Below are positions 3,226 through 63,943 of a stretch of 64,000 bases of DNA, piece after piece. Position 1 is the stretch's first letter, and every line of letters begins with the position of its first letter. A program made the position numbers and the translations under genes. Origin of the DNA: an uncultured Granulosicoccaceae bacterium (GTDB taxonomy: Bacteria; Pseudomonadota; Gammaproteobacteria; Granulosicoccales; Granulosicoccaceae); NCBI GenBank assembly GCA_937922015.1, contig CAKZVB010000034.1:7775-71774 (forward strand), given 5' to 3'. The notes below the pieces were generated by a model. That model was not told the DNA's origin. It searched no databases and worked only from the letters and a program-made list of their open reading frames with translations.

Positions 3226-3345
3226 GTCGCTGCTACTACAAAACAGTGGTGCAACGCGAGCGAGGCGCAGAACGTTGTCGCTTTATCAATCGATCCTTTA
3301 TTCATTGTTGAACTAAAGGGAAAACGCCGCATTCGACCGGTAAAA

Positions 3346-4164: not shown

Positions 4165-4370
4165 TGACTTTCACCCGGTTAACAACGGTTGTTCCATCCA
4201 CTAGCGCAGTTCACTACCTGAGACACTATCGCAATCCTATAATAACCCAAATCACTGCCATCATATTATTGAAAAAAATCTCGGCAGCTGAAGCACAATT
4301 AACCTCAGTATGGTACAACACTGGAAACCGCAGCGGGCCGGCGCCAACACCTCAATGCAAAGAAAAAACT

Positions 4371-5534: not shown

Positions 5535-5617
5535 CTCGCCCGGCGCTTACAACAACAGCTGACAGCCCCACCCGTTATCGTTAGCTGTAGCGGACGATAA
5601 AACGTATACTCCTCGCT

Positions 5618-6289
5618 ATGGATTGGTCAGCACTACAATTATCGTTCAAACTGGCGTTGTGGACATTGGTACTGCTGTTACCACTTGGCCTGATTCTGGG
5701 CCGCTGGCTTGCCTGGAGCAATGTCAGAGGTCACGCCTTTATACAGGCGATACTGGCGCTGCCGTTGGTGCTACCGCCTACCGTATTAGGTTTCTATCTG
5801 CTATCCATGTTCTCAGCGCAATCTACTATCGGTGGTTATTACCAGCAACTGTTTGGAAAGTCGCTGGCGTTTAGTTTCGAGGGCTTGCTGATAGCCTCAG
5901 TGGTTTTTAATATTCCATTCGCGGTGCAACCGGTTCAACGTGCGTTTGAAACTATTAGTCGCGACATCAGAGACGCCGCCGCATGTTGCGGCCTGTCAAG
6001 ATGGCAGCAGTTCAAGACAATTGAATTTCCACTGGTCTGGCCCGGTATACTGGGTGCTGCAGTATTGGTTTTTGCACACACGCTGGGGGAGTTTGGCGTG
6101 GTATTAATGGTAGGCGGCAATATACCAGACGAAACCCGTACCATTGCAATTTCAATCTACGACAGCGTGCAATCATTTGACAACAACGCCGCCTCTATTA
6201 TGTCTGCGGTGTTATTACTTATTTCGGTATGTGCAATCGCTATGGTCTTCTATTTATCTGACAGCCCGCGACAGACAACGCACTACTGA
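5618..6289 (+). CDS. modB: Molybdate ABC transporter permease
   Basis: 223 aa and polytopic, with a BPD-transporter EAA-type loop (DAAACCGLSRWQQFKTIEFPLVWPGI). Size and sequence match ModB. Confidence 0.85.
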   Translation: MDWSALQLSFKLALWTLVLLLPLGLILGRWLAWSNVRGHAFIQAILALPLVLPPTVLGFYLLSMFSAQSTIGGYYQQLFGKSLAFSFEGLLIASVVFNIPFAVQPVQRAFETISRDIRDAAACCGLSRWQQFKTIEFPLVWPGILGAAVLVFAHTLGEFGVVLMVGGNIPDETRTIAISIYDSVQSFDNNAASIMSAVLLLISVCAIAMVFYLSDSPRQTTHY

Positions 6290-8764: not shown

Positions 8765-8883
8765 TGATTTTATCGTCAGCTGATTTCTGTCTCGATGATA
8801 CGCGATATCGTCATGATGCAGGGCGTGAAATATCTCTCTGGCTGACAGTCAGGCAAAGTGTATTTGCCTCGACAGCTACACCA

Positions 8884-10440
8884 CTACTTCCCCCTGGCTC
8901 TCTTGACTACCCAGCTCACTAACGGCAGAAATATCAGGATAATCGCTATCACAGTAATCGGCCCGGCAATAGGTCGATTAAAAAAGATGGAAAAGCTGCC
9001 ATCGGACAATAACAATGATTGCCGAAGCGTTGGTTCTGCTATCGGTCCTAACACAATTGCCAATACCGCCGGCGCAAGCGGGTAGTCAAGTATTCGCAGG
9101 AAATAGGCACCGATGCCGAAAAGCAACATCAGCCACACATCAAACATATTTTGATACGCGGCGTAGGTGCCGATCACGCTCAGTACAAAGATCATCGGGG
9201 CCAGAATCGTAAACGGCATACGCAACATCCACAGAAACACCGGTATAAACGCCAGGTTAACCAATACCGCCACCAGGTTTGACACATAAAAGCTGCCGAT
9301 CAGCGGCCATACAAAATCCGGCTGATCTGCAAACAACAACGGCCCCGGCTGCAGACCCCAGATAACCATACCTGCCAGCAGCACGGCTGTGGTTGGCGAA
9401 CCCGGGATACCCAGTGTCATCATTGGCAGCATCGCCCCTGTTGACGCAGAATTGTTTGCGGCCTCCGGTGCCGCAACACCATTTACATTTCCCTTTCCAA
9501 AGGAATCTTTGTCTTTAGACAACATTTTTGTCACACCGTAGGCCATCAACGAACCCGGTGTAGCACCTGCAGCCGGCAGAATCCCAACAAAGAATCCCAG
9601 AAACGAACCAACGGTAGTACCTTTCCACGCCTCGGGGAATTTTCGAATCGCAGCCATCACCGATTTGAAGTTCACGTTGGCCTCGGTCATGTGAACCTCG
9701 CCGCGGGTAGAGTTTATCGTCCAGATCATCTCGCCTATGCCATACACCCCGATGGCCAATACCAGAAAACGAATGCCGTGAGAAAAACCGGTGGTGTCGA
9801 TAAGGCCTGCAGTCGCGGGAAAGAGATCGAAGGGGTCGCCAAACTGTAAACGAGGCTCACCGGTGATAATGTCAAATCCCACCGTCGCCAGCACCAGGCC
9901 CAGCGCAATAGAAATAATAGTTTTTGGAATATCATCGCCACCCAGTCCAATGAAGGTGGAGAACGCCAGCAGCATTAGTGCAAAAATTTCAGGATTGCCA
10001 AACTTGAGCGCCACGGTTGCCAGAGGAGGTGCAAAGGCGGTGAAAAATACATTTGCTACAGTCGCACCGATAAATGATGCGATAGCGGCGGTGACCAATG
10101 CTCGCTCAGCGAATCCTTTCAGCGCCAGCGGCCGTCCGTCGAAGGTTGTCGCGACGGCTGTTGATGCACCCGGTATTCCAAGGGTAATAGACGATATGGC
10201 GCCCCCGTACATGGCACCGTAGTAGATTGCGGCCAGAAAGATCATCGGGGAAGTAGCACTGCCGGTCATATCCTGAATGACAAAAGTAAACGGCAACAGG
10301 ATTGCCACTCCGTTAACTGAACCCAGTCCAGGCATCGCACCGACGAACAAACCGACAACGACCCCGACAACACACAAGGCAAGATTGAGAGGCATTAACG
10401 CCTGATAGATACCATCGACCAGAGAAGGAAGAATTTCCAT
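8884..10440 (-). CDS. tctA: Tripartite tricarboxylate transporter large permease
   Basis: 518 aa and highly hydrophobic. TctA-like motifs (GAMPGLGSVNGVAILLP, GTLGIPGS) and adjacency to tctB and tctC. Confidence 0.88.
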   Translation of the reverse strand: MEILPSLVDGIYQALMPLNLALCVVGVVVGLFVGAMPGLGSVNGVAILLPFTFVIQDMTGSATSPMIFLAAIYYGAMYGGAISSITLGIPGASTAVATTFDGRPLALKGFAERALVTAAIASFIGATVANVFFTAFAPPLATVALKFGNPEIFALMLLAFSTFIGLGGDDIPKTIISIALGLVLATVGFDIITGEPRLQFGDPFDLFPATAGLIDTTGFSHGIRFLVLAIGVYGIGEMIWTINSTRGEVHMTEANVNFKSVMAAIRKFPEAWKGTTVGSFLGFFVGILPAAGATPGSLMAYGVTKMLSKDKDSFGKGNVNGVAAPEAANNSASTGAMLPMMTLGIPGSPTTAVLLAGMVIWGLQPGPLLFADQPDFVWPLIGSFYVSNLVAVLVNLAFIPVFLWMLRMPFTILAPMIFVLSVIGTYAAYQNMFDVWLMLLFGIGAYFLRILDYPLAPAVLAIVLGPIAEPTLRQSLLLSDGSFSIFFNRPIAGPITVIAIILIFLPLVSWVVKRARGK

Positions 10441-49379: not shown

Positions 49380-50582
49380 CTATTTATTATGATTGGCCAG
49401 GTAACTCGAAGCCGCCTCTAGTGCGCCGCTGCCATGAGAAATATCAAGCGCCTTCAAGGCGGCATCAATGCTGCCCAGCACACCCATAATCATCTGGCTG
49501 TTGATGTGTCCCATGTGACCAATACGAAAAAAACCATGCCACTCAGGATCATCGGGCTGCGCCATACCAAGACCGATACCCAGTGACACACCCGCATGTT
49601 CAAACACCCAGTCCCTGACGCCAGTACCGTGGGGCGCACCCGCACGCACTGATGTGACAGCGTGACTTCGACACTCTTTATCATCGATATTCAATTCGAC
49701 AGGGCCATCGTTTGCCCAGCATTCGACTGCTGTATAAATAGTATTGGCGAGTATTTCGTGACGCTTCCAGACCGACTCTACACCTTCAGCAAGAATTATA
49801 TCCAGCGCCGCCCGCAAACCGTATAAGTGATGTGTTGGCGGCGTACCACCAAAGTACTGATAGAACTCCTCAGGTTCAGCACGCTTTCTCCAATCCCAAT
49901 AGCCGCTTACTACCTTTTTTTGATCACGATACCCGGCTGCTTTTTGATTAAAAAAAACAAACGCCATACCCGGCGGTGTCATCAGACCTTTTTGACAGCC
50001 TGCGACTACGACATCAACCCCCCATAAATCCATTTCAAATTTATCGCACCCTAATGATGCAATACAGTCGATCATCAGCAGAGCGGGATGTCCGACTGCA
50101 TCAATAGTGTCCCGAAGCGCTTTTGTGTCATTGCGAACTGAAGTCGCGGTATCAACATGAACTGCCATCACGGCCCGATATCGATGTTGCTTATCAGCTG
50201 CCAGCGCTTGCTGTACGCGCTCCTGATCAATAGTTGATCTTAAACCGAAGTCTATTATTTCGGTTTCAACCCCCATCGCGTTTGCCATCGACGCCCATCC
50301 GTGCGCAAAGCGTCCCGTAGCAAGCACCAATACCCGATCACCCTCTGCCAGTACATTTGCCACCGCCGCTTCCCACGCTCCATGGCCATTGGCTATATAC
50401 ATCGCCGCGTGGTGCGAGGTTCGCACCACTTTTTTCAAGTCAGCTTGTACACCCGCCATCAACACACCCTGCTCAGGCGCGTAAATATTCGGGCCGGGGC
50501 GATGCATAGCCCGCAACACCTGATCCGGAAATACCGACGGCCCCGGTATAGCAACGTAGTGACGGCCATTTGACAGTGACAT
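49380..50582 (-). CDS. Class V PLP-dependent aminotransferase (serine/alanine--glyoxylate or serine--pyruvate aminotransferase family)
   Basis: MSLSNGRHYVAIPGPSVFPDQVLRAM... and the PLP-lysine context AGCQKGLMTPPGMAF. I prefer the ATG at 50582; the ORF-track start is 50651. Confidence 0.82.
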   Translation of the reverse strand: MSLSNGRHYVAIPGPSVFPDQVLRAMHRPGPNIYAPEQGVLMAGVQADLKKVVRTSHHAAMYIANGHGAWEAAVANVLAEGDRVLVLATGRFAHGWASMANAMGVETEIIDFGLRSTIDQERVQQALAADKQHRYRAVMAVHVDTATSVRNDTKALRDTIDAVGHPALLMIDCIASLGCDKFEMDLWGVDVVVAGCQKGLMTPPGMAFVFFNQKAAGYRDQKKVVSGYWDWRKRAEPEEFYQYFGGTPPTHHLYGLRAALDIILAEGVESVWKRHEILANTIYTAVECWANDGPVELNIDDKECRSHAVTSVRAGAPHGTGVRDWVFEHAGVSLGIGLGMAQPDDPEWHGFFRIGHMGHINSQMIMGVLGSIDAALKALDISHGSGALEAASSYLANHNK

Positions 50583-50880
50583 GGAATAAACCCGGCTGGA
50601 TGTGTTAAGAATATTTCTGGGGTCGAGTGTACAACCGCACTCCGCCTGCAACCATCACTAATTTTGATGGCACGCGATCACGGGAATCTTTTGCCGGGGC
50701 GTGGCAGCCCACGCTTCTCTGGGGTTAGCGCGACCCGGTAGCGCTGTTGACTCCGGTCGCCGGATCCTCATGAATAATGCACAGGCTGGCGCTCGACGAT
50801 TAGTGGGCCAGTTGGCCAATGGGTTCGGGTTCCGACGGCTCACCAATCAGAGCCGCCCTCGAATGTCAGGTCTAATCAGC

Positions 50881-52269
50881 TCAACCAGTGCCGGCAACAC
50901 GCCCGATCGCACCATCAATAGCATCAACAATTTCATCAAGCTCTTTTTCAGTACAAATAAGCGCCGGACTCAAACACAATGTATTGTTATGTTTTTCAAA
51001 ACTACGATTAGTGCGCCCGATTATGACGCCCTGCTGCATGCAATCAGCGGCAATTTTTGCCGGTATTGATTCATCAACAGGCTCTTTGCTGGATCGGTCT
51101 GTCACCAGCTCCACACCAACAAACAACCCCTTGCCACGAACGTCACCGATGATCTGATGCTTCTGCTGAAGTGAACGCAGTCGCTCCATTAAATACTCAC
51201 CCATCACTGCTGCATTTTCGACCAGGTTTTCTTCTTCAATCATTTTCATGTTTTCAAGTGCCGCGGCCGGACCCGAAGCACAGCCACCAAAAGTACTGAT
51301 GTCGCGAAAGTAACTCATCGGGTCATCGGCATTTGCTTTAAACCGGTCAAACACGGCTTCAGTGCTTACCGTACAGGCGATGGCAGCGTAACCACTGGCA
51401 ACCCCTTTAGCCATTGTCACAAAATCAGGTTTTATACCGTAGTGTTGATAGCCGAACCACTTACCGGTTCTGCCTACCCCACAAACGACTTCATCTATGT
51501 GTAAAAGTACATTGTACTTTTTGCAGATTTCCTGAATCGTCTCCCAGTAGCCTTCTGGCGGAGTTATGACACCGCCACCGGCAGTCACAGGCTCAAGCAC
51601 AACCGCACCTACGGTGTCTGCTCCTTCTGCAAGAATAATGGTTTCCAGCTCACGCGCTGCAAGTTCACCGTAATTATCGACCTCACCGTACTGGCTCCGG
51701 TATTCAAGGCAATGCGGCATTTCGATAAAACCCGGTGCAAAGGGACCATACTGATCTTTGCGCTGAGACTGTCCGCAAGAACTTAGCGCACCGATAGTTG
51801 TACCGTGGTAATCGCGATCACGATAAATGATCTTATGCTTCTTGCCATTATTTTCGATAGCCGCCAGCTGACGCACCATTTTGTACACTTTCTCATTGGC
51901 TTCAGAGCCAGAGTTCGAATAGTAAACCCGGCTCATCCCGGGCATTTTTTCGATGAGCTTTTTGGCAAACAGTGCGCCTGGAATGTTACCGGCAGAGTTT
52001 GCGAAGTAGCACATCTCAACCAGCTGATCGCGGACTGCATTAGCAATGCGCTCTACCCCATAGCCAACATTAACTGTCCATACGCCACCGGACACCGCAT
52101 CAAGGTATTCTTTACCATTGGCATCGGTGATACGCATACCCTTACCGCTCACCATCACTGGCGGTTTGGTGTCTTCAAAGCCTTTGTGCTGAGTTAGATG
52201 GTGCCAGACGTGGGCCTGGTCACTGTCGATCACGTCGTTGATATCAACTGAATTGTCGTCGAGACTCAT
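50881..52269 (-). CDS. Class III PLP-dependent (omega-) aminotransferase
   Basis: 462 aa. SGSEANE, DEVVCGVGRTGKWFG and TMAKGVASGY (PLP Lys) are typical of the beta-alanine/taurine/putrescine--pyruvate aminotransferase group. Confidence 0.85.
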   Translation of the reverse strand: MSLDDNSVDINDVIDSDQAHVWHHLTQHKGFEDTKPPVMVSGKGMRITDANGKEYLDAVSGGVWTVNVGYGVERIANAVRDQLVEMCYFANSAGNIPGALFAKKLIEKMPGMSRVYYSNSGSEANEKVYKMVRQLAAIENNGKKHKIIYRDRDYHGTTIGALSSCGQSQRKDQYGPFAPGFIEMPHCLEYRSQYGEVDNYGELAARELETIILAEGADTVGAVVLEPVTAGGGVITPPEGYWETIQEICKKYNVLLHIDEVVCGVGRTGKWFGYQHYGIKPDFVTMAKGVASGYAAIACTVSTEAVFDRFKANADDPMSYFRDISTFGGCASGPAAALENMKMIEEENLVENAAVMGEYLMERLRSLQQKHQIIGDVRGKGLFVGVELVTDRSSKEPVDESIPAKIAADCMQQGVIIGRTNRSFEKHNNTLCLSPALICTEKELDEIVDAIDGAIGRVAGTG

Positions 52270-52529
52270 GTTTGACCTCCATGCATTTGGTTCGCAATTT
52301 TAGCGACATTGCCTACATTTCTGAGTACGTGTAAGCGACAGGCGCGTCCCGTTAATAGGTCCAGATAACTAAATTGGTATTCCTGCGCCATCAGCCCTTT
52401 GTTACCGATCAAACGTCAATCAGGGCTTTGAGATACGGTTCACAGATGCAATATGGCTCGATCGACGGCAGCAAACGGATTGACCGGCCTGAAATAGCGT
52501 CGTCACAAAGTCCGCGAGCCGGCGTGGCA

Positions 52530-52602
52530 GAAGCTCAGCTCGTGCGAACGCGCCCTGACGGCGGGTTTCCATTGATCATTATCGTAACACCAGTCTATGC
52601 GC
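52530..52602 (-). repeat. Intergenic hairpin-containing repeat, copy 2 (homologous to 45030..45120)
   Basis: See copy 1. The hairpin here is ACGCGCC-ctgac-GGCGGGT. It lies 20 nt 3' of the minus-strand GlcD-like stop codon. Confidence 0.55.
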
Positions 52603-52621
52603 CGGACTCCCGGCCCCGGGG

Positions 52622-54019
52622 CTAGAATATTTTCCCGGGATTCATGATGTTGTCAGGATCGAGGGCGTTTTTTATCATCATCATAAAATCGACAGAGTCA
52701 CCTAGCTCATCTCGCAAATAGGCTTTCTTGCCCTGGCCGATACCGTGTTCACCGGTACACGTGCCCCCCATTGCAATTGCCCTGTCACTCAAGCGCCCGG
52801 CAAAAGCTTTCGCCTGTGCCAACTCGGTTTCATTTTCAAGATCCACCAATACCAGTGTATGGAAATTACCATCCCCGACATGGCCGACAATCGGGGCAAT
52901 TAACCGGCTTTGTTCTATATCTGCACAAGTTTCTTCCACACACTGTGCCAGACGCGATATCGGCACACAGGCGTCAGTCACCACCGCATCCGCAGACGGA
53001 CGCAATCCCCGCGCCGCCCAGTAGGAGTCATGACGTGCCTGCCATAATTTATTTCGCTCTGCTTCATCTGCTGTCCATTGAAAATCAGAGCCACCACAGT
53101 CATTGACGATTTCACCAAACTGAACCGACTGCTCCTGTGTCGATGATTCTGTGCCGTGAAACTCTATAAACATGGTGGGTTTCTCGGCAAGATCTAATTT
53201 TGAATAAGCGTTGCAGGCGCGGATCTGCACTGCGTCGAGCAATTCGATACGGGCAATAGGAATGCCGTATTGGATCGTCTGAATTGCCGCATCACAGGCC
53301 GCCGCAATCGATGGAAAATGGCATATGCCCCCTACAATAGATTCAGGGACACCATGCAGTTTTAACGTCAACTCGGTGATCACTCCGAGAGTGCCCTCAG
53401 AACCGACCAAAAGGCGCGTCAGATCGTAGCCAGCCGAAGTCTTTTTGGCGCGACTGGCAGTGTTTATTTCCCGACCATCTGCCATCACCGCTCGCAGGCC
53501 AAGCACGTTGTCTTTCATTGTTCCGTAGCGAACCGCATTGGTGCCGGAGGCCCGTGTTGATGCCATGCCTCCCAGACTCGCGTCAGCTCCGGGGTCAATC
53601 GGAAAAAAAAGCCCGGTATCCCTTAGATATACATTCAATGCCTTACGCGTAATACCCGGCTGAACCGTCACAGTGAGATCTTCCGGATGCACTTCTATCA
53701 CCTGATTCATCTGCGACACATCAATCGATACTCCTCCCAGAGGAGCATTAAGTTGCCCTTCCAGTGATGAGCCCGCACCAAACGGAATGACCGGACATGA
53801 ATGCTCAGCACAGACCTGAACGATCAGCGCAATGTCGTCTGCAGAGTGCGCAAACACCACAGCGTCGGGTGGTTGACCAGCCAGATACGTCAATGTATGT
53901 GCGTGCTGCTCACGGATTGAAGCCCCGGTTTGAAACCGTTCACCAAACCGCTGCCTGAGAATTTCACCGGCAAGGGAGATGTTTCTTTCTTTAGCCATCT
54001 TTGCTGACATGTGTATCAC
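52622..54019 (-). CDS. FAD-linked oxidase (D-lactate dehydrogenase (cytochrome) / glycolate oxidase GlcD-like)
   Basis: 465 aa. FAD_binding_4 (PFGAGSSLEG) and a C-terminal FAD-oxidase_C domain (GTCTGEHGIGQGKKAYL, DPDNIMNPGKIF). Confidence 0.85.
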   Translation of the reverse strand: MIHMSAKMAKERNISLAGEILRQRFGERFQTGASIREQHAHTLTYLAGQPPDAVVFAHSADDIALIVQVCAEHSCPVIPFGAGSSLEGQLNAPLGGVSIDVSQMNQVIEVHPEDLTVTVQPGITRKALNVYLRDTGLFFPIDPGADASLGGMASTRASGTNAVRYGTMKDNVLGLRAVMADGREINTASRAKKTSAGYDLTRLLVGSEGTLGVITELTLKLHGVPESIVGGICHFPSIAAACDAAIQTIQYGIPIARIELLDAVQIRACNAYSKLDLAEKPTMFIEFHGTESSTQEQSVQFGEIVNDCGGSDFQWTADEAERNKLWQARHDSYWAARGLRPSADAVVTDACVPISRLAQCVEETCADIEQSRLIAPIVGHVGDGNFHTLVLVDLENETELAQAKAFAGRLSDRAIAMGGTCTGEHGIGQGKKAYLRDELGDSVDFMMMIKNALDPDNIMNPGKIF

Positions 54020-54158
54020 GTTAATTTGACGTCCGGCCTGAGCATGACGCTATTAGAAAAATCTTTCAATAACGAATAACAACCCCTGATTACCGGCTCA
54101 GGTTTTTATTGTTCACGCCGCCCCCTTAAGAGGTATCCGAAAAAAGCTGCCCTGCGCC

Positions 54159-55532
54159 ATGAAAAATATCATCTTTGCCTTGTTCACCGCTGTCGGCATT
54201 AACTCCTCGCTGATGGCTGACACCCTGGAATACCAGGCGACCACTGACTTTTCAAACATCAATGATGGCGAAGTACCCTACTATAGACACAATGGCATTT
54301 CCGCCCTGGCAATTAACGCCGGCAACGCCGCCTACCGCAACAAGTTTGCGCGCGCAACAACCGACTTTGACGGCACCGCCGGCGTCTATGATGTCACCAT
54401 CTCGGCACTGGGTGAACTGGACGGTGAATGTGAATACCGTTTTCTGGTGAATGGCATCGTCGCAGGCACAGCAACCAACAACCGCGTCGATGTAGACTAT
54501 GAGGTACAGCACCATACGTTCAAAAATATCAGCATTCCGGCCAATGCAGAAATTTCTGTCGAATCAAACGCGGTTTCTAACGGCCTGGTCCCGGAACACG
54601 ATATTTTTGCGTTTGCGCGAGGGCGATGGATAACCCTCACGCTGCAGTCTGATGACACAGCCACCACGCCTGTAGACCTGGAGATTTCCGCCAGTACAAC
54701 TACCTACAGCCCGAACGTCGGCGATACCATCACCATCGATATAGATATCTACAACAGTAACTCGACCCACACCGCTACCAACCCGGTAATCAACTTGACC
54801 GTTCCGTCACTGCTGGCTATTGAAGCGCCATCACAATGCACTGTAGACGGGGAAAACCTTAGCTGTGCCGTGGCTGAAATCAATCCGAAATTCACCGACA
54901 CATTTTCACTGACCGCTGTTGCTGTAGCAGGCGGCACGGCAGACCTCCCGGTATCAATAACGGCCGACCAGATCGACAATCAACTATCGAACAACAACAC
55001 AACACTTACAATTACCAGCACCGATCAGACCGTCACTGCAGCACCTGTCGTTGATCTGGCAGTATCCATTGACAGTGACGTGACCAGCGCTGTGGTTGGA
55101 GACGAAATTAACTACACAATGACCGTAGTAAATCAACACGCAAGCAACGTGGCTACATCACCTGTCGCGGGCGTCTTGCTACCGGACAGTCTCAGCTTTA
55201 GCTCAAGCGCCGGTTGCAGCGCCATCAACAACGCAGTCACTTGCTCACTGGCAGAGCTTGCCGGCGGAGAAACAGCAATTGTTGAATTCAGCGCTACCGT
55301 AAACGCCGCAGGCGACGCCCCGGTGGTTGCATCGGCCAGTGCTGCAGAGTCAGAAGTTGTCGCATCTGATAACGAAGTAATCTACTCAATCACAGCGATT
55401 GAAAGTGACCGTGCGTCAACCGGAAATCAAGTCCCGAACAGCACACAAGCCGGCACCGGTGGTGGCTATACCAGTCCGTTAAACCTCATTGGTTTATATC
55501 TGGTTGCGCTGTTTGCCCGACGACGCAAATAA
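54159..55532 (+). CDS. Secreted DUF11-repeat surface protein with GlyGly-CTERM-type sorting tail
   Basis: 457 aa. Signal peptide, an N-terminal ~160-aa globular module, three DUF11-like repeats (D..I...V.N........V..L.P), and the C-terminus GTGGGYTSPLNLIGLYLVALFARRRK (55452-55529). Confidence 0.75.
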   Translation: MKNIIFALFTAVGINSSLMADTLEYQATTDFSNINDGEVPYYRHNGISALAINAGNAAYRNKFARATTDFDGTAGVYDVTISALGELDGECEYRFLVNGIVAGTATNNRVDVDYEVQHHTFKNISIPANAEISVESNAVSNGLVPEHDIFAFARGRWITLTLQSDDTATTPVDLEISASTTTYSPNVGDTITIDIDIYNSNSTHTATNPVINLTVPSLLAIEAPSQCTVDGENLSCAVAEINPKFTDTFSLTAVAVAGGTADLPVSITADQIDNQLSNNNTTLTITSTDQTVTAAPVVDLAVSIDSDVTSAVVGDEINYTMTVVNQHASNVATSPVAGVLLPDSLSFSSSAGCSAINNAVTCSLAELAGGETAIVEFSATVNAAGDAPVVASASAAESEVVASDNEVIYSITAIESDRASTGNQVPNSTQAGTGGGYTSPLNLIGLYLVALFARRRK

Positions 55533-55607
55533 CGATGCTGGCGGGCAAGTCATTGTTGCCCCACCGGGTATCTATACAAATGATCTGTTGCTAATCGAAC
55601 CAGTCTT

Positions 55608-57056
55608 TCAGCTCAGACTGGTCAGCAATATTGACATGAGCACAGCACTGCCTGTACCAGCAATTGCTATCGGCAAAACCCGCCGCAGCAAATCTGCCTC
55701 CGCTCCCGGATAGCCCGCAATACTGGCAGCGAAAACAACTCTGCCCGGCGACGCCAGCGTTGTATTACTGCCAGCGGCGTTTTGCACCGCCGCGGCAATA
55801 TCTACCGGCATTCCCACCTGCGTGGCGGCACTGACCTGAAACCCCATAAACAATGCGTTTGAAGACGTATTACTCGCTGTTAGAAATCCACCAAGGCCAC
55901 CCAGCAACGGCACCACAGCAGCGTAGTAACTACCGACTGCACCAGCCAGTGATTGCGCCATCACAGCTGTCATTCCCGATTCCATCATCAATTGTCCAAA
56001 CAATAAAAATCCACCCACCGCGATAGTCGCGACCAGCCACTGCTGACAGGCCGCCTGTGTCAGTAAACGAAGTTGCTGCCTCGCACCCGGCAGTACACAC
56101 ACACCGGCTAGTGCGGCAACAGTCAGCCAGAAACCCACGTGATAAAAGGGTGCAAACGCATACTGGCCGATACCAAGTATCTTTGACTGAAGATAATCCC
56201 GAAGCGGTGCATGCAGCCGGGTCAACAATAGCGATACCATCAGAACCACAAATGGCAATACCGCACGGTTAAAACCACTGATGACCACATTGCTGTCGCG
56301 GGATCGGTTAACCATGGCAGCAACGCCAACCATCACAATGCCAGCCAGACAACCGGCAAGCTCAACACTGAGAAAGACCGACAGAATCCACAGTGAAAAA
56401 CACAGCACCACAGAATACACAACCAGCCAGCCTAGCTGCCGGATGCCCAGAGGCTGCCCGCCAACAACCAATGCAGCACCACCGCAAATCATAACAAACG
56501 GAAAGTTAATAACCGCCGCGAGTTCAGCCAGCCGAACCATTGAAACTCCGGACAACTCCGATCCAATAATAGTCCCGATCGCCAGTGCACCCCATGGCAC
56601 CGCACACTGACCCAACAGAGCAATTACCGCCGCCTGCACCGGCTTGTAGCCAAGCGCAATAAACAGCGGAGCTGCCACCAGAATTCCGACCCCGAAACCA
56701 GTGGCGGATTCAAAAAATACCGATACACCAAAGACAATAGACAGCAAACGGTGAATCTCATCAGGTATGGCTTTGACAACCGCTTTGGCGATGACTTCAA
56801 GCGCACCGCCTGCATCCAGCACACGGTAGAAAAACACTCCCCCTAAAAGCACGTAGGACACATTGATCGTGTTGTGCAGGCCGGCTCCCACAGCACTGAA
56901 GACTCCGGATAACGGCAGTTGAAATTCAGCCCGGATTAAAACTATCAGCGTGGTCATTGCCAGACCCGCAAGCCCTGCTCTCAGGGCCGATTGCCGCCAC
57001 AACAGAATTAACAGGCTGGAAAAAACTATTGGCGCTGTCGCCAGTAAAAGTGACAT
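55608..57056 (-). CDS. lctP: L-lactate permease (LctP) family transporter
   Basis: ~482 aa from the ATG at 57056, polytopic, with LctP-like blocks. The ORF-track start at 57203 adds 49 non-membrane residues. Confidence 0.72.
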   Translation of the reverse strand: MSLLLATAPIVFSSLLILLWRQSALRAGLAGLAMTTLIVLIRAEFQLPLSGVFSAVGAGLHNTINVSYVLLGGVFFYRVLDAGGALEVIAKAVVKAIPDEIHRLLSIVFGVSVFFESATGFGVGILVAAPLFIALGYKPVQAAVIALLGQCAVPWGALAIGTIIGSELSGVSMVRLAELAAVINFPFVMICGGAALVVGGQPLGIRQLGWLVVYSVVLCFSLWILSVFLSVELAGCLAGIVMVGVAAMVNRSRDSNVVISGFNRAVLPFVVLMVSLLLTRLHAPLRDYLQSKILGIGQYAFAPFYHVGFWLTVAALAGVCVLPGARQQLRLLTQAACQQWLVATIAVGGFLLFGQLMMESGMTAVMAQSLAGAVGSYYAAVVPLLGGLGGFLTASNTSSNALFMGFQVSAATQVGMPVDIAAAVQNAAGSNTTLASPGRVVFAASIAGYPGAEADLLRRVLPIAIAGTGSAVLMSILLTSLS

Positions 57057-57302
57057 CAATCTAGCTTCCCGTCTCTGTACTGACACATTGGTGCCGACCC
57101 CTTGGTACCGCAGACAGACTGTGCCTGAGTTTGTAAATACGATTTCGTGAAACCACGCTCGCAAGCCTGAAAAGTCTGAAAAAACACGGGTGTCACCCGC
57201 CACTCAACGAGCCACAAGTCGGGTGGTGTCAAATATTCAACAATCAAAAATCAATTCAACAGTGATTCTACCGTTACAAGTAAAAACCTGCTGATTTTAC
57301 TT

Positions 57303-58859
57303 ATGCCACTGACCGAACCACTAAGTCGTTATTATCGAAGTAGAATATTTTCGATCGCACTACTGACCCCGCTAGTACTGGGACTGCTCGCCTGCACCAC
57401 AACGCCTGCACCACGGGTTTCGTCGTCAAACAGCGCCCAGGCTGGTATCACACAGCCAGGAAATCTGCAGGCAGACAGCCTGTACACCACGGAAATAGCA
57501 GCCAGCGCTTCGCAAGCCCCGCGTGGCGCCTACGCACCTGCTGATGATAGTAAGCTGCAGGCACTACAGAGCTGGTTTATTGAAGCCCGTGATCTGGTGA
57601 GTAATGATCTGAAGATTGATCTGTCTTTCGTAAACGCATCAGTGGTTGGCACAAGCTCCATTCGCAGGCAGGCGCGTCAAAGCCTGCTGGGGGCACTCAG
57701 TCACGACATTCAAAACAATGATTTCGCAGAATCGCTGGTAGACAATATGCTGTCAGCGCAAACGGCAAGCGTGCTGGCAATTTACTCACCGCAGGATAAA
57801 GCCATTCTGCTGCATCGCGACAACCTTGATCACTATCTGCAGTCGCAGGAATCACAGTCATCGCTGAAAGCTTCTATGCAGGCACTGTTAATTCACGAGC
57901 TAATCCATGCCGCCGATGATGTACGCTTCGAAGCCTTCGATCGTTTTGGTGTTTCGTATCAGGAGGTTTTCGCAAAATCAACCATTGTCGAGGGTCATGC
58001 ACAGTGGCACACACGTCGTCTGTGCCAGATAGCCGGCTGCAGTGCCGCGTTTGCATCATTAAACGAATATATGTTCGACGTTGACACTTCCGACGATCCT
58101 GCACTGCAATACATACAGAACAGAAACTTTAAAAATCTTGAGTTCGTGTACCGCGAAGGTGAGAGATTTATTGATCAGCTGATGCAACGGCCGAACGGCC
58201 AGCAACTGGTTACCCTGGCTTTTGAACAACCACCGCGTGACTCTATTCAAATAATAGATCCCGACTCCTTCCCTAATCGCGATCGCGAAATCCGTAACCT
58301 GGCACTATCCACAGCGATTAAGCAGTCCGCAAAACCCTGGGCAGACAATCAGAAAGGGCTCTTGAGGAGAAATGTTCTGGCCGCTGCGGCATTTAGCGTT
58401 AACCCTGAGGCACGTGAACCGATTGTCGATTTTTACACATCAAAAATCCTTGCAGCAGCCAAACACGAATACTATGACCGCACCAGTGAAGTGCCGATAC
58501 CGATATCTGTCATTGCGCTGCAAACCAGTGATGTTGAAACTGCGCAAAAAACCGCAGCGCTGATTTTCGACTCTACGACGAAAACCTACAGTGGACTCAA
58601 TGGAGAGTACGTCAGCCTGAACAACTGGGCAACGGCAAATCACACAGCTACGATTAACAGCGGCTCAACTAAATCGACGTCTATGGATTTGTTCACCGCC
58701 AGCGGCGACATGATCAATGACATGGTAAGTTCCAGCTATCCCGTTGAAGTAGTAACCGCCACCTCTGGCAATTTTGTGGTGCATATTGACGGACGGTATA
58801 AGGGTAGTGAAGAGCTAATGCAGTTAGCTGGTCGACTACTGATAAACCTGCAACGCTAG
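57303..58859 (+). CDS. Hypothetical lipoprotein with HExxH zinc-metalloprotease motif
   Basis: 518 aa. Lipobox LGLLAC (Cys31) and HELIH at 57894-57908 (LLIHELIHAADD). I did not recognise a family. Confidence 0.6.
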   Translation: MPLTEPLSRYYRSRIFSIALLTPLVLGLLACTTTPAPRVSSSNSAQAGITQPGNLQADSLYTTEIAASASQAPRGAYAPADDSKLQALQSWFIEARDLVSNDLKIDLSFVNASVVGTSSIRRQARQSLLGALSHDIQNNDFAESLVDNMLSAQTASVLAIYSPQDKAILLHRDNLDHYLQSQESQSSLKASMQALLIHELIHAADDVRFEAFDRFGVSYQEVFAKSTIVEGHAQWHTRRLCQIAGCSAAFASLNEYMFDVDTSDDPALQYIQNRNFKNLEFVYREGERFIDQLMQRPNGQQLVTLAFEQPPRDSIQIIDPDSFPNRDREIRNLALSTAIKQSAKPWADNQKGLLRRNVLAAAAFSVNPEAREPIVDFYTSKILAAAKHEYYDRTSEVPIPISVIALQTSDVETAQKTAALIFDSTTKTYSGLNGEYVSLNNWATANHTATINSGSTKSTSMDLFTASGDMINDMVSSSYPVEVVTATSGNFVVHIDGRYKGSEELMQLAGRLLINLQR

Positions 58860-58958: not shown

Positions 58959-60959
58959 CTATTCAATATCAAACGAAGATGACTGCATGACAATTCGTTT
59001 CTGACCTATTCGCCGCGTAAAACGGCTGCGGTCAAAAAACTCAAGCAGCTCTATCACCAGGTTACGACCAATGCCGGACACGTCCCGAAAAGCACTAACG
59101 GTAAAGTTATCCGCTTTCGCCAGTTGCTCACCTGCCCGCGCCAGTTGGTGCAATACTTCTGGTGTGTAGTATCGATTTGCGCTGACCCGATAAAGCCTGC
59201 CATGCGCAACAAAGGTATTGAGCAGTTGCAAAACCTCCTCATTAGTTTTACCGAGCACCTCTGATATCTGATTGACTCTTGGTGCTATGTTTCCAGCCGG
59301 TTCAAAAAGCTTTTGCAGCTCAAGCCAAATCGATTCATGGTCGTCATCCAGCCGCGACTCGCGCAAGGGATGTTTATACACTGCACCTTTCCTGAGCAAC
59401 AACTTGTGTTCAACCAACTCTTCCAGCGCCTGCAAAAATACCGTTTGCGTACAATTTTCAGGCAGTGCTTTTCTCAGTTGCTCTGCATTCGCCCCCAGAA
59501 CATTTGGATGTGCGGTATGCCAGTTGTCCAGTGTCACAAGCAGCTGCGTTTTCAGACTATCCCAGTGTGCGGGTTTTATACCCCATCGTCTCGCACCATA
59601 CTGGCATACGACAACATCAAACTGTGTGCAATACTCTGAAATTTCACGATCACGGACATTATATTGCACAGCAAATAATTGAAGGTCTACGCCATTTTTG
59701 CACAAGCTCAACAGTGCTGCCAATGCTTGCCCGGTACTGTCAGCATTTACCTGTTCATTATCAATAACAACTATCGCGTCTGTATTTTCAGGTGTTGTTG
59801 CAGTATTCATGGCATGCAACACTTGCAGACGTTGAGGACGGCTGCGACCCCGCTTAGGGGGTAGCGGATCGATCACAACACCGCCCGCAATCGTATGACG
59901 TGCAGACTGATCACGCAATACGAACCGATCACCATTTACTGCAGGCAGTGGTTGCTCGCAAATCAACCTGGCCAGCCCGTATTCACCGACTTTTAGAGAT
60001 TGATTTTCAAGCAGCGCAATACGGCAGGTCACACTGGCTGTCGCCAAGTGTAAATGCGCTGCGGTCCAGTGCTTTAAGTCATTGTTAAAATACTGTGCAT
60101 CCCCGGAATCGAATACGGGAGCCGGTGTGATACTGACATCCAACGTTCGCACCGTTTGCAATTGATCATTTGAGGTTAGCCAACCACCCCTTTTCAGTGA
60201 GATGTTCTTTATATCACTACCACTCACATTTAACGCACACCTCTGCCCGGCCTTCGCGACATCAACACTTTGGTTTTGCGCGTGGATCCCTCTTACCCGC
60301 AAGTGCGCCCGTTGTGACACTGCAAAAATTGAATCTTCAAGTCTGACAGCGCCAGACAGCACGGTGCCCGTCACCACCGTACCTGCACCTGTCACCGAAA
60401 AACTGCGATCAATGGCAAGTCTAAAATGCCCCTGGCAATACACTTTGCTATGTACTTTGGCAAAATCAATCAAGCGTCGCCGCAACTGTTCAATGGCATC
60501 GACGTCGCCAGCACTGACGGCGACAATTTCCGAAGCAGGGAATGCCGATGCGTCAATCAGCGCCTGCAGTTTGGCAATTGTCGCCGCTTGAGTGGCGGAA
60601 TCGACCAGATCTGACTTGGTCATTACAACAATAACTGCCCGGACACCGAGCAATTGAAGGATCGCCAGATGCTCACGAGTTTGCGGCATTGGCCCATCAT
60701 CAGCGGCAACAACAAGCAGGGCCAGGTCAATCGAGCCGACACCGGCGATCATATTGCGTACAAATTTTTCATGCCCCGGCACGTCAATAAAGCCAATCGA
60801 CTCTGCGGCGGCGCCGTCCGTGCCCATAAAAGCAAAACCCAGATCTATTGAGAGACCACGCTTTTTCTCTTCCGGCAGACGGTCAGTATCTACGCCCGTC
60901 AATGCTTTTATCAACGTCGTTTTGCCATGATCAACATGGCCTGCAGTTGCGACAATCAT
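58959..60959 (-). CDS. selB: Selenocysteine-specific translation elongation factor SelB
   Basis: MIVATAGHVDHGKTTLIKALTGVDTDRLPEEKKRGLSIDLGFAF is the SelB G-domain. A long C-terminal winged-helix region follows (SECIS-binding part). An alternative upstream ATG at 61001 would add 14 aa. Confidence 0.9.
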   Translation of the reverse strand: MIVATAGHVDHGKTTLIKALTGVDTDRLPEEKKRGLSIDLGFAFMGTDGAAAESIGFIDVPGHEKFVRNMIAGVGSIDLALLVVAADDGPMPQTREHLAILQLLGVRAVIVVMTKSDLVDSATQAATIAKLQALIDASAFPASEIVAVSAGDVDAIEQLRRRLIDFAKVHSKVYCQGHFRLAIDRSFSVTGAGTVVTGTVLSGAVRLEDSIFAVSQRAHLRVRGIHAQNQSVDVAKAGQRCALNVSGSDIKNISLKRGGWLTSNDQLQTVRTLDVSITPAPVFDSGDAQYFNNDLKHWTAAHLHLATASVTCRIALLENQSLKVGEYGLARLICEQPLPAVNGDRFVLRDQSARHTIAGGVVIDPLPPKRGRSRPQRLQVLHAMNTATTPENTDAIVVIDNEQVNADSTGQALAALLSLCKNGVDLQLFAVQYNVRDREISEYCTQFDVVVCQYGARRWGIKPAHWDSLKTQLLVTLDNWHTAHPNVLGANAEQLRKALPENCTQTVFLQALEELVEHKLLLRKGAVYKHPLRESRLDDDHESIWLELQKLFEPAGNIAPRVNQISEVLGKTNEEVLQLLNTFVAHGRLYRVSANRYYTPEVLHQLARAGEQLAKADNFTVSAFRDVSGIGRNLVIELLEFFDRSRFTRRIGQKRIVMQSSSFDIE

Positions 60960-61330
60960 CGTCTGGTATGCTGGTGGCGACCCTGCAACGATTTGTGGCA
61001 TGGAAATAGGACTATCATAAAGGGTACCTGGCCTTAAACCGCTATTTTCGAAAAAAACAGTAACAAAACTGTATTTTTCATTCTATCAAAATATGAACAA
61101 TGAACCTGACATCCCGGAAGATGTTGCCCGAATTTGAGCATGAATCATTGCGGCGTCAGCGCAAACGCCGGCCCGGAGTGAATCTCAGGCCAAAAATACA
61201 GGCTCACGCTTAACCATCTGCAAAAAGTAGCGTTGCCGATAGCACTGGTATCGGTCGGGCACTATCAATGCAGTTAAACTTACAGATATATCCGGCTTGC
61301 TGTCAGCAGGTCGCAACAGGTGGAAACCTT

Positions 61331-62497
61331 ATGCCAAAACTATCTGACGTTGTAGCGTCCCAACGCGAACACCTGGAAGCACTGGAGTGCCCCGTTTTCG
61401 AGCACACCGCTTTGGTACCACCACGACCGCTCAATGAGTGCAAAGTGGCGTTGATCTCCAGCGCAGGTTTGATGAGTCGCCACGATGACAACGTGCCGGG
61501 CAATAGCGCTGACTATCGCAGCTTTGCCAACGCCAGCACCGACCGCGACTTACTAGTCAATCATGTCTCTGTTAACTTCGACCGCACCGGTTTTGCGGAA
61601 GACGCGAACACCTTATTTCCACGTGAGCGATTGCGGCAATTGTCAGATGACGATGTCATCAGCGCAGCGGCGACTGAGCACTATTCTTTCATGGGTGCTA
61701 CCAACCCGGACAACATGAGGGACGCCGTTACCAGGCTGGTTGCCCAGCTTAAAGAAAATAGAGTCAATACCGTCTGCCTGTTACCTGCCTGACCAAACTG
61801 TACTCGCGCCGTGAGCGTGATTGCACACTGGATTGAACAACAAGGTATCAGCACCGTGGTCATAGGACTCGTCAAATTGCATCTCGAAAAAATTCAGCCA
61901 CCGCGCGCGCTATTTGTGCCGTTTGAATTTGGCAGACCCGTCGGTGCACCGGACGATAGCGACTTACAACTGGAAGTGCTTACGCAGGCACTGAATCTGA
62001 TAGAAACACAAACTGAAGCCGGCACTATTGTCGAATTCGACAAGGAAGATCCAAGAGCAACACCGGACCCTGAGTGGATTCCTCCCGCTATTGAAGCGGC
62101 TGACAACATCGCCGCAGAAGTGCTTGCATTAAAGCCGAATTATCAACGCCAGTGTGTAGATAAGAGCCGGACTGCTGTGGGAGTGTCAAAACTGAAAATT
62201 GCAGATGCTGCCGACCTCTTTGACACAATTGCGGCCGGTGAGGCACCATCGATCACTCGCGAAGGTATCTCAGCCAATGTCATGATGCGTCTGGCGATGG
62301 ACGATTTAAAAGCTTATTATATTGAAGCCGCACTGGCTGACGGCACTCCCTCAAGCAGGCAGATTTATGACTGGCTATGGGATGATACTCTGCTCGGTCG
62401 CCAGATAAAAGAACTGCGAGTGCGTTTTATGGAATCTAATGACAACAAGCTGGAAAAAATTGGCACCTCTTACTGTGTACCCCATCGCTGGCGATAA
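61331..62497 (+). CDS. GrdB/PrdB-family selenoprotein with in-frame UGA (Sec154) at 61790..61792, plus a ~150-aa C-terminal extension
   Basis: ORF-track pieces 61268..61792 and 61811..62497 are in the same frame and separated only by a TGA. Read-through gives ...NRVNTVCLLPA-U-PNCTRAVSVIAHWIEQQGISTVVIG...VPFEFGRPVGAP. The ATG at 61331 is preceded by AGGTGGA. The downstream piece has no ATG or SD of its own. The gene is flanked by selB and selA. Confidence 0.8.
61809..61831 (+). promoter_or_regulatory. Candidate bacterial SECIS hairpin
   Basis: CCGTG-a-GC-[GTGATT]-GC-a-CAC-t-GG begins 16 nt after the UGA. It has an interrupted stem with an A.A mismatch and a bulged U, and a GU-containing apical loop, loosely similar to E. 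coli fdhF-type SECIS architecture. Confidence 0.45.
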
Positions 62498-62512: not shown

Positions 62513-63943
62513 TTGTCACTAGACGATTGCCCATCACAACTACGCTTACTGCCCTCTATCGATTTTGTATTGAGGGACAGTGACTGCCAGGCACTGGCAG
62601 ATCAATTCGGTAAAAGCTTCCTGCTCGAGGAACTGAAGTTACAATTAACCTCACTGCGCCGGGAGATTCAAACAGGCACTGGCGCAGGCAACACAACAAC
62701 CCGAACAAGAGCAACGCTCACCAGCCTCCTGATTGCCAGAAGTAATGCTGCACTCAATGAATTGTTCGCCCCTTCACTGCGCGCCGTCACCAATCTCAGC
62801 GGCGTTATTTTACACACCAACCTTGGCAGAGCGCCGTACCCTGAAGCCGCCATCAATGCCATGGTCAGTGTCAGCAGGGGCGCATGTAACCTTGAATATA
62901 ACCTGCACAACGGTAAGCGCGGACGCCGTGATGATCACGTGGAAAAATGGATTTGTAAACTGACAGGGGCGGAAGCCGCCACAACAGTCAATAACAACGC
63001 TGCAGCCGTCCTGCTGGTTTTAAATACCCTTGCAGCAAAAAAGGAAGTCATTGTCTCGCGCGGAGAACTGATTGAAATTGGCGGATCATTCAGGATGCCG
63101 TCCATCATGAAAAAAGCCAGCTGCAAATTGCGTGAAGTTGGCACCACGAATCGCACTCACCTGAAGGATTATCAGCAAGCCATCGGTAAAAAGACCGCAG
63201 CGCTCATGAAGGTACACACCAGTAATTATGAAATAAGCGGCTTCAGTCAAAGCATCAAGGCGGCAGAGCTTGCCGGCCTTGCCGCGACATCACAGGTCCC
63301 GTTGATCGATGACCTTGGCAGCGGCAGCCTGACTGATCTATCACCTTTCGGACTGCCGGCCGAACGCACAGCTTCACAGGCGATAGCTGAAGGCGTAGAC
63401 ATCATTACCTTCAGCGGCGATAAACTACTGGGCGGTCCACAGTGCGGAATTATTGCCGGCCGCCGTGAATTGATACAACTCATTGACAAAAACCCCATGA
63501 AACGGGCAATGAGACTGGATAAAATCACCCTCGCCGCATTAGAAGCCATTTTAAAACTCTATGCGAAACCTGAAGAACTTACCCAACACCTACCCGCCCT
63601 GCGTCTGCTTTCAAGACCGGCCGGACAAATACAAAAATCGGCGGAAATACTTCAGCAACTATTAGCGGCCGTATTGCCAGCATCGGTCACCACCGCAATA
63701 GAGCCCTGCCAGAGCCAGATAGGAAGTGGCGCTCTGCCAACCAAAACTCTGGACAGCTTCGCCGTGGTATTAAGAACCAATCAAACGCTTGCTGTGGAAC
63801 ATCTGGCAAACACTCTAAGGCGGACCCCGCAAGCTATTATCGGCAGAATCAAAAACGACGCACTCTACCTTGATTGCAGAGCGCTGGAAAACCCGGACGA
63901 ACTATCAGCATCAATAAGCCAGCTTCCAGAGTTGCTGTCATAA
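62513..63943 (+). CDS. selA: L-seryl-tRNA(Sec) selenium transferase
   Basis: 476 aa. The N-terminus SQLRLLPSIDFVLRD parallels E. coli SelA SLYSQLPAIDRLLRD. PLP-lysine context FSGDKLLGGPQCG. The only available start is TTG at 62513, 15 nt after the selenoprotein stop. Confidence 0.9.
   Translation: MSLDDCPSQLRLLPSIDFVLRDSDCQALADQFGKSFLLEELKLQLTSLRREIQTGTGAGNTTTRTRATLTSLLIARSNAALNELFAPSLRAVTNLSGVILHTNLGRAPYPEAAINAMVSVSRGACNLEYNLHNGKRGRRDDHVEKWICKLTGAEAATTVNNNAAAVLLVLNTLAAKKEVIVSRGELIEIGGSFRMPSIMKKASCKLREVGTTNRTHLKDYQQAIGKKTAALMKVHTSNYEISGFSQSIKAAELAGLAATSQVPLIDDLGSGSLTDLSPFGLPAERTASQAIAEGVDIITFSGDKLLGGPQCGIIAGRRELIQLIDKNPMKRAMRLDKITLAALEAILKLYAKPEELTQHLPALRLLSRPAGQIQKSAEILQQLLAAVLPASVTTAIEPCQSQIGSGALPTKTLDSFAVVLRTNQTLAVEHLANTLRRTPQAIIGRIKNDALYLDCRALENPDELSASISQLPELLS

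Follow-up and report, generated by a model that had tools for sequence, protein, structure and literature searches.

Do two adjacent open reading frames (ORFs) separated by a TGA represent two genes, or one gene in which the TGA specifies an amino acid? This question is raised by a locus in a 64,000-nucleotide stretch from an uncultured Granulosicoccaceae bacterium (contig CAKZVB010000034.1; the whole stretch is referred to here as the window), in which ORFs 61268..61792 and 61811..62497 lie in one shared forward frame. Their sole interruption is the TGA at 61790-61792, which is followed by CCA AAC TGT ACT CGC GCC and then by a GTG at 61811; read-through from the ATG at 61331 to the TAA at 62495-62497 gives 388 sense codons (...NTVCLLPA, the UGA, then PNCTRAVSVIAHW...). 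An earlier note, made from the letters of this DNA, described the same arrangement of one TGA and six sense codons and argued for a single 388-codon selenoprotein with selenocysteine (Sec) at position 154 in a U-x-x-C motif. The description is correct on the DNA, and the argument is supported by protein-family profiles, an invariant TGA, Cys-containing homologues, a hairpin and the neighbouring selB and selA genes. What the note overlooked was the presence of these two flanking genes and the fact that the subfamily has been catalogued since 2005. We conclude that the two adjacent "hypothetical" ORFs are almost certainly one gene encoding a 388-residue selenoprotein with Sec154 in the sequence U-P-N-C, the insertion of Sec itself being deduced from sequence.

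Coding conservation across an in-frame UGA

The two halves do not come from unrelated families. The NCBIfam PrdB model (TIGR04483) aligns to the read-through product without a break at the UGA, residues 31-236 matching profile positions 24-230 of 238 with an E value of 4.8e-28, and the GrdB, GrdF and GrdH models likewise align across it. Pfam GRDB (PF07355) scores 27.1 bits, above its cutoff of 22, placing the protein in that superfamily, and the N-terminal halves of homologues carry precomputed PF07355 matches.

Relatives were collected by a scan with one genome per GTDB species, in which at least 415 genomes encode relatives; the closest belong to the Granulosicoccaceae (Gammaproteobacteria, Chromatiales). 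Eighty loci from different species genomes of Gamma-, Alpha- and Betaproteobacteria were retained. These 80 sequences share ancestry, and the counts and p-values drawn from them are not phylogenetically independent. The aligned codon is TGA in 80/80 loci, inside the motif P-V/A-U-P-x-C-T/S-R-A, and never TAA or TAG. The codons that end these 80 genes, which serve as an internal control, are mixed (TGA 35, TAG 25, TAA 20), and the junction codon is therefore no ordinary stop. The naive chance probability of 80/80 TGA is 2e-29, a value overstated by the relatedness of the sequences although its direction is unambiguous. Both halves are conserved (40-54% mean identity), so that homologues do not truly end at this site, and an in-frame UGA with coding conservation on both sides is a hallmark of selenoprotein genes. 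Metagenome relatives from a first search have 37-61% protein identity to the window; the in-frame TGA and its flanks are kept in L001, L005, L006 and L008.

A second hallmark is the occurrence of homologues in which a Cys stands where the UGA falls. When the unaltered sequence encoded past the UGA was used as query, an exhaustive HMMER search gave 1009 cluster representatives, of which the best 150 were inspected. Nearly all of these 150 are 230-250 amino acids (aa) long and, because they start a few residues past the UGA, are annotation truncations. Five full-length homologues among the 150 (P0079, P0103, P0169, P0173 and P0201; 324-415 aa) have Cys at the Sec site, as exemplified by Cognatishimia WP_353536255.1 (...FVPT-C-PHCTRAVS...). 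Full-length Cys forms are rarer than Sec forms.

The start of the gene was assigned in the same way. Homologues of the N-terminal half in the databases are exactly 153 aa long in about 70 of 73 cases, and for this reason the start codon, judged by sequence comparison, is the ATG at 61331 and not the ATG at 61268 given by the ORF lister. Direct inspection of the DNA revealed no purine-rich Shine-Dalgarno sequence ahead of the internal GTG at 61811, as the earlier note had also observed. Public gene calls cut the family into pieces of 153 aa and about 228 aa (for example, the hypothetical proteins AB833_31860 and AB833_31865), which is the erroneous split that the note had expected of automatic annotation.

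Some relatives depart from this pattern. P0054 (L010, 702-1562) and P0136 have lost the Sec loop through a deletion of about 35 residues (...SFMG|CTRAV... and ...FMGATP|CALAHY..., the bar marking the deletion); they may represent derivatives that do without Sec, or copies in decay. Locus L006 (the same as L086; Comamonadaceae metagenome-assembled genome, contig CANJPU010000027.1) contains a 241-bp direct repeat, 99.6% identical, at 5937-6177 and 8821-9061. The repeat begins 11 nt before the UGA and takes in the hairpin described below, and the second copy of this selenoprotein-gene segment lies 2.9 kb downstream, past an AbiEi/AbiEii toxin-antitoxin pair. The arrangement looks like an integrated element that targeted the selenoprotein gene and brought a replacement 3' end.

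RNA-level constraint on a hairpin after the UGA

The earlier note had pointed to the region just past the UGA as the place for a selenocysteine insertion sequence (SECIS), and a hairpin of this type with G and U in its apical loop, a third hallmark of selenoprotein genes, is present there (Table 1). Its folding energy is -14.2 kcal/mol (z = -2.1). No variation is seen among 71 distinct sequences in loop nucleotides C21, G22, U23 and G24 or in stem pairs 19-27 and 20-26, and a compensatory change occurs at pair 15-31, with G-C in 49 sequences and U-A in 14. In total, 85% of cells are paired, compared with 15-66% in a control in which the pairing partner was slid. Rfam at its gathering threshold gave no match in the window.

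Codon usage provides a separate view of the same nucleotides. R159 is encoded by CGC in 77/80 genes, A160 by GCC in 80/80 and V161 by GTG in 80/80, and the codons of A160 and V161 are the only ones with zero entropy among 74 columns in which the amino acid is conserved. Within the Granulosicoccaceae the mean entropy of the SECIS codons is 0.45 versus 1.44 elsewhere (Mann-Whitney p = 1.4e-4), and because the GC content of these genes is about 50%, this constraint is not a high-GC codon bias. A Cys-form gene served as a control: it encodes the same peptide, CTRAVS, but with GCG and GTC in place of GCC and GTG, and no hairpin is formed. These data demonstrate that the hairpin is under constraint at the RNA level.

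We propose that translation would start at ATG 61331 and that the GC-rich 6-bp hairpin, with its C-G-U-G-N loop, would recruit SelB and Sec-tRNA(Sec) at UGA 61790. Sec would then be inserted at codon 154 and translation would run on to the TAA at 62495-62497.

The hairpin also bears on the opposite view, that the TGA is a genuine stop, with either two genes (a 153-aa N-terminal piece and a C-terminal piece of about 226 aa initiated at the internal GTG) or a decaying pseudogene. Gene callers annotate the split everywhere, and a GTG does stand 6 codons past the TGA. However, this GTG, in addition to having no Shine-Dalgarno sequence, is the Val161 codon within the conserved hairpin loop, and the hairpin itself is constrained. 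An ordinary stop is likewise at odds with TGA at all 80 sites when terminal stops vary, with the conservation of both halves, with a single PrdB profile spanning the junction, with the existence of full-length Cys forms and with the adjacency of selA, selB and, in other lineages, selC (see below). We regard a genuine stop as extremely improbable. A pseudogene, a two-gene split and an alternative genetic code were all three rejected as readings of the locus.

Genomic setting among selenocysteine genes

The predicted selenoprotein gene is directly flanked by selB, which is divergent, and by selA, which begins 15 nt downstream on the same strand. The coordinates of these and other features are collected in Table 1.

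Table 1. Features of the predicted selenoprotein gene and its surroundings, in window coordinates
Feature	Position	Strand	Remarks
BhcA-like class-V aminotransferase	49380-50651	-	
Class-III aminotransferase	50881-52269	-	
FAD-linked oxidase (FAD, flavin adenine dinucleotide)	52622-54019	-	
DUF11-repeat protein	54159-55532	+	
L-lactate-permease-family transporter	55608-57203	-	
Neighbour X, lipoprotein-like, HELIH motif	57303..58859	+	Convergent with selB; weak NF038145 match
selB, Sec-specific elongation factor	58959..61001	-	TIGR00475, 406 bits against a cutoff of 242; SelB beta-barrel and winged-helix Pfam domains
Shine-Dalgarno-like AGGTGGA	61318..61324	+	6-nt spacer to ATG 61331; read directly from the DNA
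Predicted single selenoprotein coding sequence	61331..62497	+	153 codons, UGA as Sec154, 234 codons, TAA; PrdB profile spans residues 31-236
PrdB/GrdB-homologous alpha/beta domain	61421..62038	+	Residues 31-236; TIGR04483, Pfam GRDB
UGA predicted to be read as Sec154	61790..61792	+	TGA in 80/80 species loci, mixed terminal stops; Cys in full-length homologues
Cys157 codon, U-x-x-C partner of Sec154	61799..61801	+	Cys in 80/80 aligned sequences
Weaker lower helix of hairpin	61799-61802 pairs with 61822-61825	+	
SECIS-type upper stem-loop	61804..61820	+	6-bp stem 61804-61809/61815-61820, loop CGUGA 61810-61814, 11 nt past the UGA
C-terminal all-alpha domain, six predicted helices	62039..62494	+	Residues about 237-388; AlphaFold model of the C-terminal half of the window protein
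selA, L-seryl-tRNA(Sec) selenium transferase	62513..63943	+	TIGR00474, 565 bits against a cutoff of 268

The order selB(-)-gene-selA is a recurrent one: selB is placed alike in 20/20 close Granulosicoccaceae loci, and selA is found wherever the contig reaches that far. selA follows the gene at a distance of 0-15 nt in the window and L005 and of about 115-195 nt in other relatives; the two genes are probably co-transcribed as an operon. In a divergent Granulosicoccaceae copy (L062, 5769-8658) the order is tRNA-Sec(-), gene, selA, and in four Alphaproteobacteria (L040, L068, L073 and L085; about 2250-5710) selA-selB-tRNA-Sec lie divergently upstream of the gene. Linkage to the Sec machinery therefore takes three different forms, depending on the lineage. 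As listed, the selB ORF starts 14 codons ahead of the start shared by the SelB profile and homologues (MIVATAGHVDHGKT), the profile aligning from residue 15; from this alignment the real start is probably Met15, at 60959, which would leave about 370 bp between the divergent selB and selenoprotein genes.

The short distance to selA invites a regulatory addition that is compatible with a selenoprotein gene, namely that polarity or translational coupling ties selA expression to Sec decoding and hence to selenium supply. In E. coli, a SECIS-like element controls translation of selAB. The shared strand and the gap of 0-15 nt in the window and L005 would suit such coupling, as would a gene order kept in every Granulosicoccaceae locus that is long enough; but with the wider gap in other relatives tight coupling is not conserved, the promoter/terminator scan stays at background level and favours neither side, and the proposal, being purely inferential, strikes us as unlikely.

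The same neighbourhood could point to a role in selenium or sulfur trafficking, with the protein acting as a perselenide/persulfide or selenide carrier or as a reductase that feeds SelD or SelA. Apart from its position between or beside Sec genes in the lineages just described, the gene directly follows sufC-sufD-sufS and a SUF-associated (DUF59-type) gene in about nine alphaproteobacterial loci (for example, L048 1469-4059, L058 5165-5557 and L059 1250-2077). However, of the 59 more distant loci, those outside the Granulosicoccaceae, the majority show neither a Sec nor a Suf gene within 6 kb, most of the alphaproteobacterial loci lack Sec genes over that span, and a Sec-dependent protein that is required for making Sec would be circular. 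Furthermore, linkage to selABC is known for fdhA and has been explained by co-inheritance rather than shared function (PMC1794560), and the Cys form occurs in an unrelated cluster of sulfatase, FAD-enzyme and thiamine pyrophosphate (TPP)-enzyme genes. A trafficking role therefore appears quite unlikely to us. The cluster in question, at the P0079 locus (L091, 1-10876; Cognatishimia sp. WU-CL00825, BAABWX010000010.1), comprises same-strand genes in the order sulfatase, EamA transporter, sulfatase, 789-aa FAD oxidoreductase, Cys-form gene, TPP enzyme, 3-hydroxyacyl-CoA dehydrogenase and 2-dehydro-3-deoxygalactonokinase; a possible hint is that the Cys-form paralogue serves the catabolism of sulfated compounds.

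Other neighbours are given as context. Between 41.7 and 64 kb of the window, selA and selB are the only Sec-related genes found, and none of the upstream neighbours at 49380-57203 is Sec-related. The neighbour called X in Table 1 encodes 518 aa with a lipoprotein-type signal (...LLAC), a metallopeptidase-like HELIH motif and a weak match to the Hvo_1808 family; it lies upstream of selB in 17/20 Granulosicoccaceae loci, as well as in L001, L005 and L008. The largest neighbour cluster across the 80 loci is an antisense-ORF artefact of high-GC genomes.

Family, structure and comparison with known systems

Is the protein, then, a proline reductase? The best family match is PrdB, with a nearly full profile and the same UxxC Sec motif, and the literature places the subfamily under PrdB; it could accordingly be a bona fide PrdB, or a GrdB-type protein B, whose PrdA or GrdE subunit is encoded elsewhere. 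The scores speak against this, at 98.2 bits for TIGR04483 (equivalog cutoff 300) and 42 bits for TIGR01918 (subfamily cutoff 65.45). The length does as well: PrdB consists of the PrdB domain alone (about 240 aa), whereas the 388-aa window protein carries an additional conserved helical domain of about 150 residues (237-388). No PrdA or PrdC/D/E is encoded within about 6-10 kb of the gene in the window or the 80 related loci, and no PrdA-, PrdC-, GrdA-, GrdC- or GrdE-like neighbour recurs there, in agreement with the earlier note, which had found none of GrdA, GrdC, GrdE and PrdA nearby. The hosts (Granulosicoccaceae, Stellaceae, Rhodospirillales and Acetobacteraceae), moreover, are what we take to be mostly aerobic Proteobacteria and not Stickland fermenters. 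Because of the low score, the missing prd operon, the extra domain and the aerobic hosts, membership among true PrdB proteins is unsupported. The protein is probably not a true proline reductase, and we consider it very unlikely that the name is correct.

To examine the structure, AlphaFold models of residues 155-388 of the window protein and of the full-length Cys homologue P0079 were used (predicted local distance difference test, pLDDT, 95.2 and 89.4, respectively). The N-terminal two-thirds are modelled as an alpha/beta domain. In the P0079 model, a strand (147-151) leads to Cys154 at the Sec position and into a helix (155-170), with Cys157 in its first turn, which agrees with the strand-loop-helix junction that the earlier note had read from the sequence. 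As modelled, the placement of Sec154 and Cys157 is the classic redox-active UxxC/CxxC geometry. Cys157 is present in 80/80 sequences, and Cys20 (76/80) and a loop H78-x-S-x-N-F-D-R85 are near-invariant.

Neither PrdB (about 240 aa) nor GrdB has the C-terminal domain, and both profiles stop at residue 235-236. The earlier note had been unable to assign this region of about 150 aa, and the searches gave the same outcome: Pfam gave no match on the domain in any of the 130 family members scanned, PDB sequence searches with a single sequence and with a family profile found no relatives, and Foldseek found no significant match in the PDB (best E 1.6 for the C-terminal half and 0.016 for the full-length P0079 model, with a template-modelling score of about 0.2). 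Residues W249, E263, R280, G284, D324, D325, E332, W348, W350 and R363 of the domain are conserved in at least 95% of the 80 sequences.

Based on these results, we speculate that the Sec154 selenolate would serve as a nucleophile or redox centre and that a Sec154-Cys157 selenenylsulfide would form and be re-reduced by a cellular dithiol. The helical C-terminal domain, in place of the pyruvoyl subunit (PrdA/GrdE), may help to form the substrate site. In the Granulosicoccaceae, the gene would travel with the Sec-decoding machinery.

The explanation as a whole, a single GRDB-superfamily selenoprotein gene whose product is a stand-alone reductase in a selB/selA setting, is in our view very likely. 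Within it, the assignment as a stand-alone UxxC reductase, not a proline reductase, is one that we favour on balance; any single candidate substrate would deserve far less confidence than that assignment, and D-proline is probably not the substrate. Several points weigh against the explanation. Just one pair of the hairpin covaries, the remaining stem pairs being invariant or changed on one side, and this in sequences that are not phylogenetically independent. ARAGORN detected no tRNA gene, and so no tRNA-Sec (selC), in the 64-kb window, nor any tRNA-Sec in the scanned main-type Granulosicoccaceae loci; selD is absent from the genes checked at 41.7-64 kb of the window; and upstream of the gene no promoter-like site rises above background. 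Neighbour clustering of the 80 loci yielded no universal partner and no substrate-related neighbour. The catalytic mechanism is modelled on likeness to PrdB/GrdB and other UxxC proteins, and the stand-alone assignment draws on partner absence over a span limited to about 6-10 kb.

A broader proposal can be offered tentatively, as possible but doubtful: that the marine "PrdB" is a self-contained, obligately Sec-dependent reductase in which the six-helix domain, not described before, replaces the pyruvoyl partner, that in the Granulosicoccaceae it, rather than FdhA or SelD, is the client that keeps the Sec trait and moves with it in a selB-gene-selA module, and that UGA decoding might gate selA.

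The window gene belongs to a subfamily catalogued as selenoproteins since 2005, and its selenoprotein status is not new. Modestly new are its embedding in a Sec-machinery cluster and the C-terminal domain without a known relative; the remaining interest lies in these two features, in a functional label that is probably wrong and in mis-annotation over hundreds of genomes. Public records of at least 415 species genomes break the gene up, with essentially no exception, into two "hypothetical proteins", and the SECIS and motif defined here would permit automatic repair of the annotation. In ocean metagenomes few selenoproteins are as abundant as this family, yet the name "proline reductase" is unsupported by the membership tests. 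Searches of the literature returned no work on what PrdB-like proteins do in aerobic Proteobacteria and none on selenocysteine in Granulosicoccus. Granulosicoccus has cultured members, in which the function of the family could be tested.

Comparison with known systems places these features in context. The SelB-binding stem-loop of E. coli fdhF starts 11 nt after the UGA, and the hairpin described here likewise lies within the coding sequence, with the same 11-nt spacing and with G and U in the apical loop (the invariant G22 and U23). In contrast to fdhF, the stem is CGCGC/GCGYG with no bulged U evident, and binding of SelB to it is putative. Clostridial PrdB (Clostridium sticklandii and Clostridioides difficile; TIGR04483) shares its domain over nearly its whole length, with Sec at the equivalent U-x-x-C, but the window protein has no nearby PrdA pyruvoyl subunit or PrdC and has about 150 extra C-terminal residues. 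Similarly, in the GrdB/GrdF/GrdH group (PF07355, TIGR01917/01918), the C-terminal half of GrdB (profile positions about 205-431) matches residues 18-235 of the window protein, with the Sec site among them; the window protein differs in that it lacks the roughly 200 aa that extend GrdB at the N-terminus and is extended at its C-terminus instead, no GrdA, GrdC or GrdE is encoded nearby, and its motif is U-x-x-C-T-R, compared with UxxCxxC in GrdB (PMC13188914).

The closest relationship, that of a shared subfamily, is to the "Proline reductase PrdB" UxxC selenoproteins reported from the Sargasso Sea in 2005 (Zhang, Fomenko and Gladyshev, PMC1088965), where they were the third most abundant selenoprotein family with 42 Sec forms to 1 Cys form, and from the Global Ocean Sampling data in 2008 (Zhang and Gladyshev, PMC2398784), with 235 Sec to 110 Cys forms; later reviews still file this marine family under D-proline reductase. 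The supplement sequences show ...VPV-U-PFCTRAVSVLAHFFE...PPRALW... and a C-terminal ...EDLxAxYTE...WFW..., and the window protein has the corresponding motifs V/I-P-V/I-U-P-x-C-T-R-A-V, PPRxLW, acidic-DL-x-A-x-Y and W-x-W. Unlike the short anonymous reads of those catalogues, which have no genomic context, the gene described here is complete, is assigned to the Granulosicoccaceae and is flanked by selB and selA, and its SECIS-type hairpin and additional domain have been characterised. That flanking recalls the linkage of fdhA to selA-selB-selC in Proteobacteria, where the trait and its client were taken to be inherited or transferred together; the same paper proposed FdhA and SelD as the families that maintain the Sec trait (Zhang et al. 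2006, PMC1794560). In both cases a selenoprotein gene flanks or sits within the Sec-decoding genes; here, however, the client is PrdB-like, not FdhA or SelD, and the arrangement is selB(-), gene(+), selA(+). The gene is tightly linked, in several lineages, to selB, selA and selC, and this provides a counter-example to FdhA and SelD as the anchors of the Sec trait.

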